A DNA stretch of 64,000 bases from Dehalococcoidia bacterium (GTDB lineage Bacteria > Chloroflexota > Dehalococcoidia > UBA6926). A model generated the notes under the pieces. It ran no database searches. It was not told the DNA's origin and saw only the letters and a program-made list of their open reading frames with translations. The translations under genes and the position numbers were made by a program. Of this stretch, positions 5,240 to 37,191 are shown one piece after another. The stretch spans positions 1,705,443 through 1,769,442 of the forward strand of contig OZ244736.1 in the NCBI GenBank assembly GCA_965219405.1, written 5' to 3'. Numbering within the stretch: the stretch's first letter is position 1; every line of letters begins with the position of its first letter.

Positions 5240-6061
5240 TCAACTACTTAGCACCGGTTGGATAATCCCATACCGGTCCGCCGCCAATCCAACCGTCTCC
5301 TGAATTAAATCGACGGGAATCACTGTGGCAAGTCCAGAGTTCTCCTGGACGATTAGCCTGGGCGTTCCGGTCTGCTCACTCAGAGCTACGTCAACGAACG
5401 GCTGATAGGCAGCCACAACGCCAATCAACTTGGGATCCTGGCGCGTTTGGCCATACGAGAACATGGTTGGCTTGAGAATGACCGGGCCTCCGCTATTTCC
5501 CGGAAAGACAAACGAATCTATCAGGAATTCCTTGGAGCGACGCTCATAACAGTCTTGAATCCGGGCAATAACTCCCTGGCGCACGATCACGTAGTTCTGT
5601 TCAGCGCCGGCCAGTCCAAGCGGGAAGCCGAGCACAAATACTTCGTCTCCCTCAGAGACGGAACCGCTCTTCATAGACTCCAGGCGTTCCGTCTGTCCGT
5701 TTCCCGTGAAGAATGCCATCTTTACATCTTCAAGGGCTTGCCCAAGTGAGTCTATTAGCAGAACAGCAACATCTACATCCGGGTCAGTATGAAAGATCCA
5801 GTGATCGTTTGGTCCGCCATCATTCGGAGGCAACGGCAGTATCTTGGGAGCAGTCCCGGCAAGCGCATTGAAACGTATTTGCGGGCTGCGTATCCCCTTC
5901 ACAACGTGCCGATTAGTGACCAGGTAAACGTAGTATCGGCCCTGATTCCCCGAAGGCTGCCCATACAAGAAGCCGGAGGCAGCGTACCGTATGTTTCCGT
6001 CTTTGTCCGGCGTGCCTAGCGCGACGACTTTATCCAGGAATGCAGGCGGGATCAAGGACAT
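5240..6061 (-). CDS. cytoplasmic trypsin-like (S1/chymotrypsin fold) serine peptidase
   Basis: The catalytic triad context is present: LVTNRHVV (His), DVDVAVLLID (Asp), GNSGGPV (Ser). There is no signal peptide or TM segment. Confidence 0.7.
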   Translation of the reverse strand: MSLIPPAFLDKVVALGTPDKDGNIRYAASGFLYGQPSGNQGRYYVYLVTNRHVVKGIRSPQIRFNALAGTAPKILPLPPNDGGPNDHWIFHTDPDVDVAVLLIDSLGQALEDVKMAFFTGNGQTERLESMKSGSVSEGDEVFVLGFPLGLAGAEQNYVIVRQGVIARIQDCYERRSKEFLIDSFVFPGNSGGPVILKPTMFSYGQTRQDPKLIGVVAAYQPFVDVALSEQTGTPRLIVQENSGLATVIPVDLIQETVGLAADRYGIIQPVLSS

Positions 6062-6302
6062 TCTGGTTTCTCCTCACGGATCCGAGGCAGGTATTTCTAC
6101 TATCAATTATCGCAAGAGGTAGCAAGAGTTCTCCTGATTGCGGAATCGCGGTGAAGGCATGCTTTCGGCAGAAGGAGGGGAGTGCGGTACGAGGTTGGGC
6201 TGCGCAATGCGTATCAGATTCCCGCATTCGCGGGAATGTCGGTGATGGGGGCGGGAATGAGGGAGTGACCCTTCGACTGTGCTCAGGGTGAACGGGCGGA
6301 GG

Positions 6303-6659
6303 TTAGTCCAGGCCGCGTTTGTCGAGGATCTTGTCGACTTCGCCTTCGCGGGCCTGGCCGATCATTTCCTTGACGCGGTCAGGCATCTCGATGCCCGCCT
6401 CGTCCATGCGCTTCTCAGCCCATCGCCCGATGTTTGACGGGTCACGCCAGTAGTCGTGGCCGGGGGCGTCGGGATCACCGGAGGCCTCGTGTCGAGAGGC
6501 GGTGGAGCGGACGTATGCGGCGCGGGACATAACCTTCTCGGTCTTGTTGGAGCCGCAGTGGGCGCATTCCTGCTCCGTCGGCAACTCTTCCGGCATGACC
6601 TTATAGAAGGTGCTGGAGCGTTTGCCACATTCGTTGCACGTGAATTCGTATATGGGCAT
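6303..6659 (-). CDS. FmdB-family zinc-ribbon protein
   Basis: MPIYEFTCNECG...CAHCGS gives the CxxC...CxxC FmdB signature. Confidence 0.75.
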   Translation of the reverse strand: MPIYEFTCNECGKRSSTFYKVMPEELPTEQECAHCGSNKTEKVMSRAAYVRSTASRHEASGDPDAPGHDYWRDPSNIGRWAEKRMDEAGIEMPDRVKEMIGQAREGEVDKILDKRGLD

Positions 6660-6697
6660 CGTGTCACCGCCCTCCCTGCCGCGACTCTGCGCCTCGG

Positions 6698-6961
6698 CTA
6701 GTAAAGTCCGTCATCGAAGTAGCCGTCATCCATCCCATCGTAATCGTCATCGCTCGGCGCGTCATCAAACGCGGAGAGGCGGTCATAGTCTCGGTATAGG
6801 TCCTGCCTCGAACGAACGACGGCGACGCGGGAGATCTTGCGCCTTAGGGATGTTCCCCCGCAGTTGCGGCAGGTGGGGTCACCGATGGGCGCGGAGACGG
6901 AGCGCGTGAAAACGCTCGTGTCGCGACCGCATTCCTCGCATTTGAATTCATAGATTGGCAT
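6698..6961 (-). CDS. FmdB-family zinc-ribbon protein (second tandem paralogue, acidic tail)
   Basis: MPIYEFKCEECG...CRNCGG, with a D/Y-rich C-terminus. Confidence 0.75.
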   Translation of the reverse strand: MPIYEFKCEECGRDTSVFTRSVSAPIGDPTCRNCGGTSLRRKISRVAVVRSRQDLYRDYDRLSAFDDAPSDDDYDGMDDGYFDDGLY

Positions 6962-7049
6962 GGCTTGGTCAGTCTAACAGAGGGGGCGGACCGCTCATAT
7001 CCTTCGACAGGCTCAGGATGAGCGGGAAGGGGTGGGAATGGGGGAGTCC

Positions 7050-7454
7050 CTAACGCGTGTCCTGGATGGCGTTTTTGTGCCAGGTGAGCCGCATGACCCT
7101 GCCCCGCCGGTCAAAGACGACGGCGACGACATCAATACGTGTGTGCTCAGGCAAACTTTCGGCTTCGTGATCCTGTCGATACGTTTCGATGAGGCGGGCG
7201 AGGCGATTGGCCTTGGCGGCAGTGACGGACTCCTCCGGGGTACCAACGTTGGGTGTCGAGCGGCTGCGCACTTCAACAGCCACAAGCGTCTCGTCGATGA
7301 CACCAACGATATCAAGCTCTCCGGCACGGTAGCGGACGTTCTCCGCGAGAGTGTGAAAACCCTCGGATTCAAGGCGTCGGCGGGCAAGGCTTTGGGCGTG
7401 CAGCCCGCGCCTGGAACGGGTGGTTGGGCCTGTTTGTTGATCCTTGTTCTGCAC
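7050..7454 (-). CDS. yraN: YraN-family (UPF0102) PD-(D/E)xK endonuclease
   Basis: ARRRLESEGFHTLAENVRYRAGELDIVGV...VAVEVRSRS matches the YraN pattern. Confidence 0.65.
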   Translation of the reverse strand: MQNKDQQTGPTTRSRRGLHAQSLARRRLESEGFHTLAENVRYRAGELDIVGVIDETLVAVEVRSRSTPNVGTPEESVTAAKANRLARLIETYRQDHEAESLPEHTRIDVVAVVFDRRGRVMRLTWHKNAIQDTR

Positions 7455-7500
7455 GGCTGAGTCCTATGCGTATCCCTTATACTAATGTGGCCATAGTGCC

Positions 7501-8844
7501 TTGTTCGGCCAGGAGGAAATATTGGGCGAAGATTTTACCCATTCGGCTGTGATTCTCGCCATGCAGCTGGGCATTATCCTTGTGGCCGCCAAGCTTGCGG
7601 GCGAGTTTACAGAGCGCATTCTGCGGCAGCCGGCGGTCATTGGGGAGCTGGTAGCGGGCATCATCATCGGCACGGTGGCGATTCATGGGTTTGAGCCGCT
7701 CGGCTATGAGCCCATCGGGCTTTTTGAAGAGCTATTTGAGCCGCCGGAGGAGGGGGCGGTCATTCCCGTCCCGAAGACGCTGTTTGTATTCGGGCAGGTG
7801 GCGGCCATCATCCTGCTGCTCGAAACAGGACTGAATACCAATCTCAAGGCGTTCCTGCGGTTTGTGCCGCAGGCGAGCGTGGTTGCCATCGGCGGCGTGG
7901 TTGTGCCCTTTGCCCTGGGGGCATACGCGACTGTCTTGTTCGGATTTGCCGACTCTTTCTTTTCAGCCCCCGCCCTGTTTGTGGGAACTATCATGACCGC
8001 GACGTCCGTGGGCATCACGGCCCGCGTGTTGGCTGACTTACTACGTTTGGACTCGCCGGAGGGTGTAACGATTCTGGGCGCAGCCGTTGTGGATGACGTG
8101 CTCGGAATTCTGATTTTGACAGTTGTTGTAGGAGTGACGGCAGGCGAGTCTGTCGGGGCGGCTACGGAGGCGGCCTCGTTCGAATGGACCGAGGTGGCCG
8201 TGGTAGGCGCCAAGGCCATCGGCTTCTGGCTCGTGCTCACTGTGGGTGGGATATTGGGCGCGAAGTACATCGTCCGCGCAATCAACAGCATTCGTGTGGA
8301 GGGCGCGGCGATTGCAATCGTATTCGGCATCGGGCTGTTTGCAGCGGCGTTGGCGGAGATGTTCGGGCTGGCAATGATCATCGGCGCATATTCCGTGGGG
8401 TTGGCATTGTCTCAGACAGAGCTCCGCAATCAACTCCATCAGCCCCTGAACGGTCTATATCATGCGATGGTGCCAATTTTCTTCGTGGTGATGGGCACGA
8501 TGGTCGACATTCAGGCCATGGTTGATGCTCTCGGATTCGGGCTGGTCATCGTCGTGTTGGCGATTATCGGCAAGGTGGCGGGATCAGGACTGCCGGCGTT
8601 GGCGGCGGGGTTCAGCCGTATCGGAGCGTGGCGCGTGGGCGTGGGAATGACGCCGCGCGGCGAGGTAGGCCTGATTGTGGCAGGCATCGGCGTGTCACAG
8701 GGCCTGATTGGGCAGGATCTTTTTGGCGTCGCGATCCTGATGACAATTGCGACTACGCTTATCGCACCCGCCGTGCTGGTGCCTGCGTTCCGCAACAACG
8801 CCCCGGGCCTGCGCAAGGAGCAGGCGATGGAGAGCCAGGTTTAG
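7501..8844 (+). CDS. monovalent cation:proton antiporter (CPA family, NhaP/Kef-like)
   Basis: Twelve-TM-like hydrophobic profile. It includes QPAVIGELVAGIIIG and the GMTPRGEVGLIVAGIG motif typical of CPA exchangers. The start is uncertain; alternatives lie near 7561. Confidence 0.7.
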   Translation: MFGQEEILGEDFTHSAVILAMQLGIILVAAKLAGEFTERILRQPAVIGELVAGIIIGTVAIHGFEPLGYEPIGLFEELFEPPEEGAVIPVPKTLFVFGQVAAIILLLETGLNTNLKAFLRFVPQASVVAIGGVVVPFALGAYATVLFGFADSFFSAPALFVGTIMTATSVGITARVLADLLRLDSPEGVTILGAAVVDDVLGILILTVVVGVTAGESVGAATEAASFEWTEVAVVGAKAIGFWLVLTVGGILGAKYIVRAINSIRVEGAAIAIVFGIGLFAAALAEMFGLAMIIGAYSVGLALSQTELRNQLHQPLNGLYHAMVPIFFVVMGTMVDIQAMVDALGFGLVIVVLAIIGKVAGSGLPALAAGFSRIGAWRVGVGMTPRGEVGLIVAGIGVSQGLIGQDLFGVAILMTIATTLIAPAVLVPAFRNNAPGLRKEQAMESQV

Positions 8845-10498: not shown

Positions 10499-11233
10499 AT
10501 GGGCACCGGTATAGCCAATCAGTGGTGGGTTCGTTTCGCGCAGATTGATGGCGTCGATGTTATTCATGTCGATCTATCGCCAAACGCGGCGCACGAAACC
10601 CGAGCCCTGCGGTTCCTGAACGAATGGGAACGTGAACGGTGGACCCGTTATCATCCCGGAGCTCCGAGGCGTCGATTTGCGCTAAGCCGAGCAGCGCTGC
10701 GAGCGGTTCTCTGTGAGACTCTCCATTGCAACAATGACGAGCTTGAGTTTGGCTGGGTGGAACGCGGCAAGCCGCGCGCCTACGTGGACGGTGTACCCGC
10801 CCCGCTCCATTTCAATGTGAGCCATAGCGGCGACAACGGGATGCTCGCAATTTCACGGGATCACCAGGTAGGCATCGATATTGAAGAGATCAGCCAAGTA
10901 TTCCGATTTGACGCGATTATCGAATCGACCTTCAGTCCGGATGAGCAGGCTACGGTTTCGGCCGCGGAGAAAGACTGCGTAGCAAGAGCATTCTTTGAGA
11001 TATGGACCCTCAAGGAGGCAATCATCAAGGCGACCGGTGTGGGGCTGTCCGCGAACCTGCAATGCATCGAGACGCCCGCTGCGATGCGGAATGGCGCCGT
11101 CACCGGTCAAGTCCGGCTCCCCGAGTTTCCGGATGTGCGCTGGCGGCTGCACACGTTCAGCGCCAACGATTTCGTCGGCGCTCTTGCGGTTGAGACGGTG
11201 CCGTCGCCCGTAGTTGAGGATGCGTTCGAGTGA
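10499..11233 (+). CDS. 4'-phosphopantetheinyl transferase, Sfp/EntD type
   Basis: FNVSHSG, QVGIDIEEI and WTLKEAIIKATGVGL are canonical PPTase motifs. Confidence 0.8.
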   Translation: MGTGIANQWWVRFAQIDGVDVIHVDLSPNAAHETRALRFLNEWERERWTRYHPGAPRRRFALSRAALRAVLCETLHCNNDELEFGWVERGKPRAYVDGVPAPLHFNVSHSGDNGMLAISRDHQVGIDIEEISQVFRFDAIIESTFSPDEQATVSAAEKDCVARAFFEIWTLKEAIIKATGVGLSANLQCIETPAAMRNGAVTGQVRLPEFPDVRWRLHTFSANDFVGALAVETVPSPVVEDAFE

Positions 11234-11579
11234 CCGAAGAGCCCAGTCTGTTTGGCACGTTCCTGAGCTGATTTCCACTCATGACCCGACAGTCGATGAG
11301 AAGACGATCATTCGGCTGAGACGCCACGGCAATCCCGAGGGATCGCGTCTTGTCATGAGCCATGGCAACGGTCTGTCTATTGACCTGTACTATCCGTTCT
11401 GGTCAAACCTGTTAGACGATTTTGACATCATCATCTACGACCTCAGAAATCATGGCTGGAACCCCGTGGGCGACATCAGGAATCACAACCTTCCAACGTT
11501 CATCTGCGATTACGATCGGATACTCGAGACGATCCGTAAGGAGTATGGGGATAAGCCTACTTTTGGCATCTTTCACTAG
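11214..11579 (+). pseudogene. alpha/beta-hydrolase N-terminal fragment (truncated before the nucleophile elbow)
   Basis: VMSHGNGLSIDLYYPFWSNLLDDFDIIIYDLRNHGWN matches the HGxG / DxRGHG region of alpha/beta hydrolases. The ORF ends at ...TFGIFH*, and its 3' 168 nt overlap the convergent PhnB-like gene. Confidence 0.4.
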
Positions 11580-11981
11580 GCTTTCCATGATGGCCGTGGG
11601 AGCCCGCGCCATCAACTCATCCAGGTTCGCCGGCACCACCTGCCAGGAGAGGCCAAAGGGATCCGTAAGCCAACCGCAGAAGCCCTGTGTGCCGCCCTCA
11701 GCAAGCTTGTCCCAGTAATAATCAATCTCTTCCTGTGATTCGCAGGGGACGACGAAGGAGATTGCCGGCGTCATTTCAAACATTGGCCCACCATCAAGAG
11801 CAGTACATGTAAGGCCATCCAACTCAAACTCTATTTGAGCCGCCCCCTTTGCAGGGCCTGCAGGAATCTCGATTACGTTCGTGATTCGGGAGTTTGGAAA
11901 GACGGACACGTAGTGTTCAACCGCTTCCTTCGCCTTGCCGCCAAACCATAGAAACGGGCTGATTCCCTTTGAAAGGCTCAT
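11412..11981 (-). CDS. PhnB-like / VOC (glyoxalase-bleomycin resistance fold) family protein
   Basis: MSLSKGISPFLWFGGKAKEAVEHYVSVFPNS...GLTCTALDGGPMF...DPFGLSWQVVP is the PhnB/3-demethylubiquinone methyltransferase-like signature. The protein has an ~45-aa C-terminal tail. Confidence 0.65.
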   Translation of the reverse strand: MSLSKGISPFLWFGGKAKEAVEHYVSVFPNSRITNVIEIPAGPAKGAAQIEFELDGLTCTALDGGPMFEMTPAISFVVPCESQEEIDYYWDKLAEGGTQGFCGWLTDPFGLSWQVVPANLDELMARAPTAIMESLVKDAKSRLIPILLTDRLEYPIVIADERWKVVIPDVAHGVPAMISEVVDDDVKIV

Positions 11982-12155
11982 CGCGACTTGCCTCCAATCA
12001 CCTTGTCTTCATTGGTCATTCGTGTCCAATCGATACCTCATATTACTTATGGAAGCGGCGGATACGCTGTATCAAGAAAGACTTGCCATGCATTCGTTTT
12101 GTGGGCGAAGTAGTGACGAGGTGAGCGGAAGAACAGCCTTAAATGGGAGGTTGCG

Positions 12156-12284
12156 ATGACAAGCGCTGCGCACGACCACAATCAGCACGAGTGCGACGAG
12201 CACGAACATCATGGGGATGAGCCGAATCACGTACATGATTCCCACGAGTGTGACGATCACGAGCACCACGCGGACGGCAACTAG
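12156..12284 (+). CDS. 43-aa His/Cys-rich small protein (MTSAAHDHNQHECDEHEHHGDEPNHVHDSHECDDHEHHADGN), putative metal-binding peptide / leader
   Basis: Absent from the >=60-aa ORF track. A strong RBS GGGAGG sits 5 nt upstream of the ATG at 12156. The sequence is 14 His + 2 Cys of 43 residues with two HECD[ED]HEHH repeats. The stop at 12282-12284 is followed by a hairpin plus T-run. Confidence 0.45.
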   Translation: MTSAAHDHNQHECDEHEHHGDEPNHVHDSHECDDHEHHADGN

Positions 12285-12308
12285 TTTTATCCGCTGATTG
12301 GGCGAATG

Positions 12309-12338
12309 GCCACCGTTTAGGTGGCTATTCGTGTTTTT
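12309..12338 (+). terminator. intrinsic-terminator-like hairpin (GCCACC-GTTTA-GGTGGC) + TATTCGTGTTTTT between the small His-rich ORF and the CDF gene
   Basis: Seen directly: a 6-bp GC stem, 5-nt loop and T5 tract. A possible attenuator. Confidence 0.35.
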
Positions 12339-12491
12339 GGGGCCAATCTCAGTCCGGTTACAATCGTCGACGAATTGTTGGCGGTTTTCTTCTGGGTGAA
12401 ACCCGGACGGCTGACTGCACAAAAACTCATGCACGCTATACTTAGTCGAGTAGCGGGGACACAGTTTCCTTTTCAGGCGGACGGAAGAGCT

Positions 12492-13559
12492 ATGGCTCGC
12501 AGCGACGACGACCATCGACACGAAAACCATGACCACGACGGCCATGACCATGATTCCCACGACAGCCACGACCATGACGCCCACGATGGACATGATCATG
12601 ACGACCACGACGGCCACGCGGGCCACGATCACGCACACGATCTCCGGGGAACGAGCCGCCGCAATCTGCTATTCGCGCTAGTCCTCATCTCGACCTATTT
12701 GGTCGCGGAGATCGTCGGTGGTGTCGTTTCAGGAAGCCTTGCGCTCATCGCGGATGCCGGGCACACGCTCACAGATGTCGCGGCGATCGGCATAGCGCTG
12801 TTCGCGATGTGGATTGCGGAGCGGGGCGCAACCATCGAGCGCACCTACGGGTATTACCGTACGGAGATACTCGCCGCGTTCATGAACGCCCTAGCATTGT
12901 GGTTGATTGTCGGTTGGATTCTGTGGGAGGCGTTTCACCGCTTCAGGCTTGACGAGCACCACGTAGACGGTTGGCCGGTTCTGATCGTCGGCGTCGGCGG
13001 TCTGTTAATCAACATTGCCGCAGCGTGGATTCTGCATCGCTCATCCGGACAAAGCATCAACGTGGAGGGCGCCTTCCAGCACGTGCTTGCAGACCTGATG
13101 GGCACCGTGGGAGTCGTCATTTCAGGCACCGTGATCATCCTGACAGGTTGGACGCTTATCGATCCGATTCTCAGCGTGGTCATCGGACTGCTGATCCTGT
13201 ACAGCTCGTGGAGTCTTGTAATGCAGGTGTTCCGAGTGTTGCTTGAGGGCGTGCCGGAGCACATCGATGTATACAGACTCTGCGCCGATATCGAAGAGCT
13301 GCCAGGCGTGACCGTCATTCATGACGTGCACGTGTGGACGATTACGTCCGGCAACGAGGTGCTAACCGCCCACGTCCTGGTCGACCCTGAATTTACCGGC
13401 TCCGATCAGAATTTGCTGGATCAGATGCAAGGCATCATCAAGCTGCGCTATGCCATTGAGCACGCCACCATCCAACTGGAACGGTCTCCAATCCAATGCG
13501 ACGTGGAAAGCCACCACGTCGGCCACCTTGAGCACGCCCAACGGCCGATTGGCGTTTAG
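12492..13559 (+). CDS. cation diffusion facilitator (CDF) family divalent-metal efflux transporter, CzcD/ZitB-like, with His-rich N-terminus
   Basis: The N-terminal (HD)n tract is followed by 6 TM with ...SLALIADAGHTLTD... and HxxxD motifs and a C-terminal cytoplasmic domain (VHDVHVWTITSG). The start at 12492 follows a GGAAGAG RBS; the track ORF extends upstream to 12321. Confidence 0.85.
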   Translation: MARSDDDHRHENHDHDGHDHDSHDSHDHDAHDGHDHDDHDGHAGHDHAHDLRGTSRRNLLFALVLISTYLVAEIVGGVVSGSLALIADAGHTLTDVAAIGIALFAMWIAERGATIERTYGYYRTEILAAFMNALALWLIVGWILWEAFHRFRLDEHHVDGWPVLIVGVGGLLINIAAAWILHRSSGQSINVEGAFQHVLADLMGTVGVVISGTVIILTGWTLIDPILSVVIGLLILYSSWSLVMQVFRVLLEGVPEHIDVYRLCADIEELPGVTVIHDVHVWTITSGNEVLTAHVLVDPEFTGSDQNLLDQMQGIIKLRYAIEHATIQLERSPIQCDVESHHVGHLEHAQRPIGV

Positions 13560-36042: not shown

Positions 36043-37191
36043 CTACGACTGTGACTGCCACTTGACGAGGGGTGACTCCTCATCACGGATACGCCGTGTC
36101 GTTCCCTTACGGCTCAGGTGCTCCAGGTGCGAAAGGGTCTCACCGACGGCCGCCCGGCGCAGGAACTCATCCATCTCTTCCCAAGAGCCAACATCCCACG
36201 GCACACCTGCCGCGACCTCGTAGGCTGTGCGCGGCGGACCGTCTACTGCCTTGAGGACGGCATCCAGGCGGGCGTCATGGTGTTCATGCAGTTCTGCCAC
36301 GCGGCCCTTTAGGTCAGTGAAGTGGTGTTCGTGGGCAGGAAGAACGAGATCAACGTCCAGCGCGCCGACCTTTGCGACGGATTCGAGGTAATCCCCCAGA
36401 GGATCCCCATCCGATGTCATCCGCACGGAGACGTTGGAGGTGATGATGGGCAGGATGTGGTCGCCGGTAAAGACCATGCGGGCTTCCTCGTCCACCCAGC
36501 AGAGATGGCCCGGCGTGTGCCCGGGCGTCCAGAACGCGCGCAGGTTGTGGTTGCCGGTCTTGTAGATTTCGGAGCCGTCAAGCAGCAGATCAGGCGGTTC
36601 AAACTCGCGGAAGAGGGCCCATCGGCGCGCCTCGCGCTCTTCTCCTGCGCCACGTTCGGCGGAATCGCCGTGAGACGGGATGCCTTCCGGGTGCTCCTGG
36701 CGCCGCTCTTCTTCCTGGATAGCGCGGCGGCCGCGGCGGCCTCCAAACATTTCTCCCTGAAGTTCTTCCTCCGGCACTCCGTGTCGGCGATACCACTCCT
36801 TCATGCGGTCGCTGCCGTCGGTGCGGGCCGCTTTAGGGTCACGCTTGAGAGATTCCATGGCCTCGCGGAACGGGCTCTGTTCCCAGTCGATGCGGTGCAT
36901 GGCCGTGCGAGCGCCGGTGAGTTTCTTGGCGTCAATAGCGAGGCCATAGTGATCCGGGTGGTTGTGCGTGATGAGGATGAAATCGATCTGACCGGGCTTG
37001 ATTCCCAACTGCCCAGCCAGCTGATCCTCGAGAGCCTCTATACCCTCCTCGGAGCGGAGGCCGGTGTCAATGAGGATAGGTTTATCAGGGCCGGTGACGA
37101 GATACGGGAGGGTGTAGCCGAGTGGATTCTCCGGCATCGGAATGCGCATCTGGAAGATGCCGGGGGCCACTTCATTGACGGATTCAGACAT
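36043..37191 (-). CDS. MBL-fold metallo-hydrolase with large charged insertion
   Basis: ILITHNHPDHYG (HxHxDH) and a TPGHTPGH second His cluster. An ~100-aa R/E-rich insert lies between them. Confidence 0.7.
   Translation of the reverse strand: MSESVNEVAPGIFQMRIPMPENPLGYTLPYLVTGPDKPILIDTGLRSEEGIEALEDQLAGQLGIKPGQIDFILITHNHPDHYGLAIDAKKLTGARTAMHRIDWEQSPFREAMESLKRDPKAARTDGSDRMKEWYRRHGVPEEELQGEMFGGRRGRRAIQEEERRQEHPEGIPSHGDSAERGAGEEREARRWALFREFEPPDLLLDGSEIYKTGNHNLRAFWTPGHTPGHLCWVDEEARMVFTGDHILPIITSNVSVRMTSDGDPLGDYLESVAKVGALDVDLVLPAHEHHFTDLKGRVAELHEHHDARLDAVLKAVDGPPRTAYEVAAGVPWDVGSWEEMDEFLRRAAVGETLSHLEHLSRKGTTRRIRDEESPLVKWQSQS

Follow-up and report, generated by a model that had tools for sequence, protein, structure and literature searches.

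Comparison across related genomes establishes that a small open reading frame (ORF) at positions 12156 to 12284 of a 64,000-nucleotide (nt) stretch of contig OZ244736.1 from a Dehalococcoidia bacterium (the whole stretch is hereafter called the window) is a real, selected protein-coding gene of a conserved and previously undescribed family. The gene lies on the forward strand, encodes a protein of 42 amino acids (aa) with two HECDxHEHH repeats, and is followed by the gene of a cation diffusion facilitator (CDF) exporter. Taken as a whole, we read it as a monocistronic gene whose 42-residue product would act as a cytoplasmic zinc buffer and hand-off partner of the CDF, with Zur governing its expression, and we put the chance that this reading is right at roughly two in three. 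The route by which zinc reaches CDF/ZnT exporters in the cytoplasm is a standing question. Copper pumps have soluble chaperones that are homologous to the pumps' own N-terminal domains; to our knowledge, no such soluble partner has been described for a zinc CDF.

The reading frame runs from an ATG at 12156 to a TAG at 12282-12284, and its 43 codons, stop included, specify the product MTSAAHDHNQHECDEHEHHGDEPNHVHDSHECDDHEHHADGN. A Shine-Dalgarno sequence, GGGAGG (12145-12150, forward strand), ends 5 nt before the ATG, and its GGAGG core is invariant in an alignment of the window's clade (alignment A2). Twelve of the 42 residues are His (29%), 2 are Cys, and 13 are acidic (7 Asp and 6 Glu), a composition within the range of Hpn-type proteins, which are small and cytoplasmic with at least about 25% His and some Cys. 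A preliminary description of this DNA had pointed out the 43-codon ORF, its two HECD[ED]HEHH repeats and the GGGAGG placed 5 nt before the start codon, all of which are present; of the 14 His and 2 Cys that it counted, the Cys number is correct, while the His number is 12. Both repeats are of the HECD[ED]HEHH type, and no signal peptide is evident in the 42-aa sequence. An AlphaFold2 model built with the family alignment lacks secondary structure, with a predicted local distance difference test (pLDDT) score of 53.5, and the peptide is thus predicted to be unstructured without metal.

Family searches and the codon-position pattern both identify the ORF as a gene. Among the 12 species of the window's clade, nonsynonymous and synonymous divergence (pN and pS) over all 42 codons were 0.037 and 0.45, giving a pN/pS of 0.083, and variable alignment columns fell 3, 4, and 28 times at codon positions 1, 2, and 3. 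Given this third-position variability and the low pN/pS, we conclude that the protein is under purifying selection; an RNA element would be expected to leave a different pattern. Conservation is far lower in the intergenic DNA on either side of the ORF (alignment A2). In L015 (L-numbers are labels of the homologue loci that we compared with the window), the peptide is 98% identical to that of the window, and the DNA is 82 to 83% identical over the aligned neighborhood. Invariant positions in alignment A1 are H11, E12, C13, H16, H18, H19, H25, H27, H30, E31, C32, D33, H35, H37, and H38, and across the peptide alignment the Cys, Glu, Asp, Pro, and Gly positions are as well conserved as the His positions. 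We also considered and rejected an antisense ORF that spans the small gene (12072-12638, reverse strand, 188 aa), since the codon-position pattern fits the forward frame only; the antisense ORF is a by-product of the His/Asp codon runs, which give it a Val-rich translation.

A search of 5.8 billion proteins returned 14 homologous small proteins (35 to 69 aa, 69 to 87% identical), in which the two HECDxHEHH units and the G-D-E-P-x-H-V-H-D linker hardly vary. When we instead scanned species-representative genomes, one per species, with an alignment of the small-protein family as the query, 261 stretches were found to encode a relative; the best 80 of these 261 come almost entirely from marine Dehalococcoidia/SAR202 metagenome-assembled genomes (MAGs), together with 3 from Acidimicrobiia and 1 from an OM1 MAG. 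Members share at least two HECDxHEHH units with a linker of the G(D/E)EP(G/N)HVHD or AH(V/E)HD type. The number of units varies from 2 in the window's clade through 3, 4 (the commonest, in proteins of 65 to 81 aa), and 8 (135 aa) to about 10 to 12 (136 to 167 aa). A profile search of 1.84 billion cluster representatives yielded only 30 family proteins, and with 261 genomic stretches against about 30 library representatives, it is apparent that gene callers mostly miss this family. Pfam and NCBIfam searches with members of 42, 79, and 167 aa returned zero families (Pfam E <= 0.1-1), a sequence search of the PDB with the family gave no match, and our literature searches found no paper on HECDxHEHH repeat strings and, in general searches, no description of such a protein.

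The gene downstream (12492-13559, forward strand) encodes a ZitB/ZnT-like CDF, a probable zinc exporter, with Pfam matches to Cation_efflux (7.9e-45) and ZT_dimer. Its ATG at 12492 lies 153 nt beyond the T-run of a hairpin that follows the small gene, in agreement with the distance of about 150 nt given in the preliminary description. About the first 50 residues form a His/Asp-rich cytoplasmic tail, and the translation contains an HxxxD in transmembrane segment (TM) 2 and another in TM5; a His-Asp-His-Asp transport site of this kind is the ZnT type (PMC7428307). The top NCBIfam match is ZitB at 271.9 bits, which is below that model's equivalog cut-off of 408, followed by a weaker match to DmeF at 97 bits, and the nearest solved structures are those of ZnT8 (the closest), ZnT3, ZnT4, and ZnT1.

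We examined the genomic context of the family in 87 non-redundant loci, counting neighboring genes by tblastn mapping, and found a CDF gene 56 to 93% identical to that of the window within 5 kb of the small gene in 62 of them. The two genes are in tandem in 32 loci, with a hairpin between them in 18 (the window included) and without one in 14. In a further 23 loci the small gene is convergent with the CDF gene, and in 26 an adjacent CDF gene is absent, although 4 of these have one within 6 kb. The pairing extends to Acidimicrobiia (L041, L050, and L066) and to the OM1 MAG (L042). In five loci (L027, L034, L042, L057, and L061), the module is fused in frame to the N terminus of the CDF itself. 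In all five, the two-repeat module continues directly into the Asp/His-rich tail and then into TM1, and the window's free peptide is 78% identical to residues 13 to 39 of the fused L042 protein (E = 5e-13). The free protein is thus homologous to the N-terminal cytoplasmic domain of its partner transporter, as in the CopZ/CopA pair.

Several of these loci held further arrangements of the repeat. In L027 (5268-5678) and L061 (5163-5609), a free protein of about 10 repeats (136 to 148 aa) is encoded immediately upstream of the fused module-CDF gene, and these genes are preceded by GATATTGAGTATC or GATATTCAGTATC, each one mismatch from the palindromic box described below. The one locus of the 87 not accounted for above, L048, carries the two-repeat module KHDIHECDEHEHHGDHPEYERDIHECDTHEHHAH in frame within a RecQ-like helicase ORF (5599-8118), near 6060-6170, inserted between an LGxLR segment and a TATA motif; we saw no other case in which the module belonged to a protein without a link to metal transport.

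Zinc-import genes also recur near the small gene, with ZnuC-like genes in 25 and ZnuB-like genes in 20 of the 87 loci, and a Fur-family regulator occurs in 12. Binding proteins of the ZnuA/AztC type are found repeatedly as well, and their closest family match is the zinc protein AztC. Some loci take the form of zinc islands, arranged as znuCB followed by the small gene, with the CDF gene and zur converging on it, or as CDF-zur-znuACB followed by the small gene. Among the genes that recur as neighbors, we saw none for urease, hydrogenase, or Nik. Two of the ZnuA/AztC-like proteins (L058, 2828-4162, and L011, 2222-4663) carry very long acidic/His insertions; the former contains many DEHGDE repeats, and the latter reaches 813 aa.

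Midway between the small gene and a divergent PhnB-like gene lies a perfect palindrome, GATACGCTGTATC (12061-12073), which is a probable operator for Zur, a Fur-family regulator. It is the sole perfect match within the 64-kb window, and a perfect copy stands at the same position in 12 of 12 clade relatives. When boxes with at most one mismatch are counted, about 11 independent clades have one ahead of the small gene; the background elsewhere in the loci is about 14 per Mb. In L058 and L063, GATACnnnGTATC is also found overlapping or directly adjoining the start of the Fur-family gene (2281-2721 in L058) and ahead of the ZnuA/AztC-like gene; variants are found at zur in two loci (L047, L089) and at znuA in two others (L011, L035). 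Since the box is common to the upstream regions of zur, znuA, and the small gene, we take it to be the probable operator through which Zur acts in these bacteria, and the small gene to be a probable Zur target. The preliminary description had stated that no ArsR/SmtB/MerR-type regulator flanks the transporter; for the neighbors we examined it is true that none is a regulator, but the remark overlooks this palindrome.

An imperfect second box, GATACCTCATATT (GATACCTCATATC in most clade relatives), lies at 12032-12044, 29 bp upstream of the main one; it matches with one mismatch at -123 in L013, L014, L016 to L018, and L022 to L024, and the block is conserved in alignment A2. A putative promoter for the small gene, assigned by eye, follows the palindrome on the forward strand (12083-12111) and consists of a -35 hexamer TTGCCA (12083-12088), a 17-nt spacer, and a -10-like hexamer CGAAGT (12106-12111), which is CAGAGT in relatives; these blocks too are conserved in alignment A2. 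The box ends 9 nt before TTGCCA in the window's clade and 8 nt before TTGACA or TTGACC in L045, L075, L078/L085, and L091. In Streptomyces coelicolor, the Zur box of the exporter gene zitB lies 8 nt upstream of a -35 TTGCCC (PMC5472717), and zinc-loaded Zur activates zitB from that box (PMC5472717, PMC9371925). Zur likewise activates a metallothionein gene in marine Synechococcus (PMC9337993). The activator-type spacing shared with Streptomyces zitB leads us to favor, by analogy, induction of the small gene at high zinc.

Other box-like elements turned up in these searches. The only other near match in the window, GATACGCCGTGTC (36088-36100, one mismatch), falls inside or at the end of an ORF on the reverse strand (36043-37191) and is consistent with chance, as 15 of 100 shuffles gave at least two matches. 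In L040, L043, L062, L084, and L086, a GATAC-N9-GTATC element, TTGATACTTGAAGCAAGTATCC, replaces the N3 palindrome about 70 to 90 nt upstream of the small gene; in the L040 clade it comes directly after a TATATT -10-like box, L069 has a similar N9 arrangement, and the element may be an operator variant or a hairpin in the 5' untranslated region. In L044, L046, L053, L067, L074, and L088, the place of the GATAC box is taken by an inverted repeat rich in A and T (for example, AACTATATGGTTTATATAGTT) with a GC hairpin after it, and in this clade zur lies upstream of the convergent CDF gene.

Downstream of the small gene is an intrinsic terminator (12302-12339, forward strand) composed of a 13-bp stem, a 5-nt loop, and a GTTTTTG tail. 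The preliminary description had reported a GC hairpin with a T-run within 25 nt of the stop codon; the hairpin is indeed there, although the coordinates given for it, 12309-12338, were slightly off. Its stem-loop (12302-12332; 13 pairs, 7 of them G-C) begins 17 nt past the stop and folds at -28.7 kcal/mol (z = -4.5), and none of 200 shuffled sequences folded as well. All 13 pairs are kept and none broken in 14 sequences of the window's clade, where substitutions are one-sided and pair-preserving only (for example, G-C to G-U) and no double compensatory change was seen. Applying a threshold of -8 kcal/mol or lower plus a T-run within 150 nt of the stop, we found a terminator-like hairpin after the small gene in 65 of the 87 loci, where the gene that came next could be a CDF, tandem or convergent, or something unrelated. 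Between clades, the hairpins are non-homologous. That non-homologous hairpins occupy a conserved position whatever is downstream indicates that each is the small gene's own terminator, and the one in the window is best read, from these comparisons, as the ordinary terminator of a short monocistronic gene.

The CDF gene, for its part, is probably transcribed from a promoter of its own. Past the hairpin and ahead of the CDF start, the block GCTATACT hardly varies in alignment A2, the more distant L012 and L007 included, and the conserved sequence TATACT (12437-12442, forward strand) is a candidate -10 element. A second, weaker terminator-like hairpin at 12362-12386 (11 pairs, 4 of them G-C) falls within some 45 nt that the closest relatives, L015, L019, and L020, do not have; it is not conserved and is probably incidental.

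Taken together, these observations suggest a working model. Zur, acting through GATACGCTGTATC and the half-conserved box 29 bp upstream of it, would govern transcription of the small gene, with high zinc leading to induction. The soluble, acidic His/Cys protein would capture cytoplasmic metal, most likely Zn2+ to judge from the genes around it, and the loaded protein would pass its zinc to the adjacent ZitB/ZnT-like exporter. The CDF N terminus is cytoplasmic, as established from the structures of YiiP and ZnT8, and because the fusions put the module on this side of the pump, we propose a cytoplasmic Zn2+ buffer that hands zinc to the CDF. The small protein would then correspond to the metal-binding module found fused to the exporter's N terminus in other species, but set free from it, and the CopZ/CopA logic would have been transferred to a zinc antiporter. 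Since the repeats expand in some members and some loci are CDF free, bulk buffering or storage may also be part of the role. A precedent is ZnT8, in which transport requires an N-terminal His-Cys-His motif that binds zinc at the cytosolic domain (PMC7428307).

Several points weigh against this model. The identity of the metal is drawn from genomic context, and the AlphaFold result (no fold, pLDDT 53.5) leaves the peptide without structural support. An adjacent CDF gene is absent in 26 of the 87 loci, and in a clade of 11 species the small gene lies between NUDIX and succinate-dehydrogenase genes with no transporter nearby; in view of such CDF-free loci, a general buffering or storage role apart from the pump fits the family as well as a hand-off does. 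Conversely, metagenomic CDF homologues of 56 to 57% identity (L094 to L096) lack a HECDxHEHH gene, so the partnership is lineage restricted; our reverse search of metagenomes from the CDF side found few close relatives, of which a 94%-identical CDF has the small gene. On the regulatory side, a consensus sigma-70 scan gave no canonical site at the scan thresholds, the promoter hexamers having been assigned by eye, and the window's -10-like CGAAGT is poorer than its relatives' CAGAGT. NCBIfam places the regulator in the Fur family only, with the Zur label coming from its neighborhood. Lying at equal distances from the small gene and the divergent PhnB-like gene, the box could belong to the latter instead, and a Zur box could also mean repression, that is, induction in zinc starvation.

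The preliminary description had offered two readings of the locus, a metallochaperone and a leader-peptide attenuator. The former is supported in kind, in that we find a selected gene linked to the CDF and homologous to a domain fused to it. The latter, in which metal- or His-tRNA-tuned translation of the ORF would set termination versus read-through into the CDF, now seems to us very improbable. The window's clade does have the order ORF-terminator-CDF on one strand, 18 loci are in tandem with a hairpin, and the hairpin begins only 17 nt after the stop codon, near to where a ribosome would terminate. However, an intrinsic terminator between the ORF and the structural gene was the only one found of the four features by which we judged an attenuator. 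Of the 87 loci, 23 have the two genes convergent, 5 have them fused, 14 have them in tandem without a hairpin, and 26 lack an adjacent CDF, and non-homologous terminators follow the small gene regardless of what lies downstream. Selection covers the whole peptide rather than regulatory codons (pN/pS of 0.083), and the repeats expand to about 12, with protein lengths reaching 167 aa. When 12120-12500 was folded, we found no alternative pairing of the terminator's 5' arm that could serve as a competing antiterminator; the terminator is present in both the minimum free energy and the centroid structures, and the overall z-score is only -1.7. An Rfam scan of 11900-12600 at E <= 10 gave chance-level matches only (E >= 1) and no metal riboswitch (czcD/NiCo). 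Given also the conserved -10-like TATACT between the hairpin and the CDF start, conditional read-through into the CDF is neither needed nor supported.

A different possibility is that the gene encodes a Zur-repressed starvation protein, a high-affinity cytoplasmic zinc scavenger or reserve for the ZnuABC side, and that its proximity to the CDF merely reflects a zinc-homeostasis island. We consider this unlikely but worth keeping in view. The palindrome is common to the zur and znuA promoters, which are classically repressed; in L009, L011, L035, L055, L058, and L063 the small gene comes straight after znuCB or is transcribed away from znuA; and GTATC half-sites fall between or after the promoter hexamers in some clades. 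Yet an exporter is by far the commoner neighbor, adjacent or fused in 60 of the 87 loci versus about 20 to 25 for the importer, and the module is fused to the exporter only. Moreover, in L028, L029, L033, and L036 the genes are in tandem without a terminator and the box precedes a likely small-gene-CDF operon, where repression by zinc-loaded Zur would switch the exporter on in starvation, and in five clades the box sits 8 to 9 nt upstream of the -35, an activator-type position (PMC5472717). Would another metal fit better? If the product were an Hpn-like storage or detoxification peptide, its repeats would bind Ni2+ or Co2+ (or Cu) and the CDF would export those metals. The His-rich composition with Cys does resemble nickel-binding tails and Hpn, DmeF is among the weaker matches of the CDF, and CDFs of the ZitB/CzcD type often carry cobalt and cadmium too. 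We nevertheless judge this improbable, given that the best match is ZitB (272 bits versus 97 for DmeF), that the nearest structures are zinc transporters, that the importer's binding protein is closest to AztC, and that urease, hydrogenase, and Nik genes are missing from the recurrent neighbors. Finally, the ORF might be the decaying, non-functional remnant of a split CDF, its N-terminal domain parted from the rest by an insertion. It is homologous to the N-terminal module of the fused CDFs and lies immediately upstream on the same strand, but we find this scarcely credible and rejected it, as it is contradicted by the codon-position and selection pattern (pN/pS of 0.083 across 12 species). 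The small gene also has its own conserved ribosome-binding site, promoter blocks, and terminator, and free-standing copies are the majority form in many contexts.

Comparison with known systems helps to place the zinc buffer and hand-off partner that we propose. Like CopZ/Atx1 and the N-terminal domains of CopA, it pairs a small soluble metal-binding protein with a neighboring exporter whose cytoplasmic N terminus is homologous to it (78% identity here), and this free/fused likeness suggests, by analogy, metal hand-off by ligand exchange. It is an analogue rather than a member of that group, as the ferredoxin-like HMA fold with its CxxC is absent and no HMA or other Pfam match was found; the partner is a CDF antiporter rather than a P-type ATPase, the metal is probably zinc rather than copper, and the protein consists of His-rich repeats for which disorder is predicted in the metal-free state. 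Hpn and Hpn-2 of Helicobacter pylori are small cytoplasmic His-rich nickel storage proteins, and the family resembles them in being very small, cytoplasmic, and His rich with few Cys, and in its probable buffering or storage role. Unlike Hpn, it has a regular repeat (HECDxHEHH), and it occurs with a zinc exporter, a zinc importer, and Zur rather than with nickel enzymes; database searches with the family returned no Hpn-like proteins, a result obtained without a direct comparison of the sequences. MntS of Escherichia coli is a 42-aa protein that modulates the manganese exporter MntP, and it offers a parallel as a very small protein of a metal regulon acting on an exporter of the same metal, as we propose here, although MntS is not His rich, is unrelated in sequence, inhibits export, and is neither adjacent to nor fused with its target. 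In the window's clade, as in the his and trp leader attenuators, a structural gene is preceded by a terminator and, ahead of that, by a short ORF with a marked excess of one amino acid, but the locus fails the comparative and structural tests for such a system.

The metallothioneins SmtA and BmtA, the latter Zur activated in marine Synechococcus (PMC9337993), are comparable as small zinc-buffering proteins of marine oligotrophs with a Zur-type operator, and one sensor may control both uptake and storage here, as with bmtA. They differ from the present family, which has 2 Cys in 42 aa and no Pfam match to Metallothio_Pro, is built of repeats, and is linked or fused to a CDF. Like the Zur-activated zitB of S. 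coelicolor (PMC5472717, PMC9371925), the small gene has a palindromic box upstream of a TTGCC-type -35 of an export-side gene, with a gap of 9 nt in the window and 8 nt in other clades versus 8 nt at zitB, and its second upstream box recalls the extended footprint there. Unlike zitB, however, the box sequence (GATACnnnGTATC) is different, the site is a putative one for Zur, and the gene directly downstream encodes the small protein rather than the CDF. The N-terminal His-Cys-His motif of ZnT8 (PMC7428307) is likewise a short His/Cys segment ahead of TM1 in a CDF of the His-Asp-His-Asp type, whereas the module described here has about 35 residues and two repeats, usually stands alone as its own polypeptide, and in the CDF gives way to a long Asp/His tail. 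The HECDxHEHH family is thus outside any described family, with an Hpn-like composition, a metallothionein-like likely role, and a CopZ-like relation to its transporter.

Because the module occurs naturally in two forms, as a free protein in most species and as part of the CDF in five, the idea of a hand-off is directly testable. We would go further only tentatively, in suggesting that HECDxHEHH proteins are the first dedicated cytoplasmic zinc chaperones for CDFs, soluble counterparts of the N-terminal module with which the pump captures metal, and that in deep-ocean SAR202 Zur represses import while activating a branch for buffering and export. SAR202 is an uncultured but abundant lineage of the ocean, and the candidate Zur operator comes with a first sketch of its zinc homeostasis. 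As a metal-binding tag or sorbent, so short and regular a His/Cys repeat could have practical interest too.

Beyond the small gene and its partner, the window's genes upstream of the pair are MetE-like, PPTase, and PhnB-like; the other neighbors examined are an alpha/beta-hydrolase-like ORF, recognized by eye from its sequence, and AddA/AddB downstream, by synteny with L007 and L012. None of these neighbors is a regulator. In L094 (3430-3759), and also in L095 and L096, a different His/Cys-rich two-repeat protein (...GEGCGHEAVEHDGHTDYVVDGHLHHVHGDHCD...) is encoded just downstream of the CDF gene; it has no Pfam match and has the look of another accessory protein, not homologous to the first, that occupies this position. 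Compared with L015, the window is missing about 680 bp at the junction 11577/11578, where the alignment passes from window 10510-11577 (L015 3673-4741) to window 11578 onward (L015 from 5423). Two ORFs lie there (11214-11579, forward strand, and 11412-11981, reverse strand). The deletion shortens the alpha/beta-hydrolase-like gene to 121 aa, against about 303 aa in relatives, and extends the PhnB-like ORF to 189 aa, against 154 to 187.

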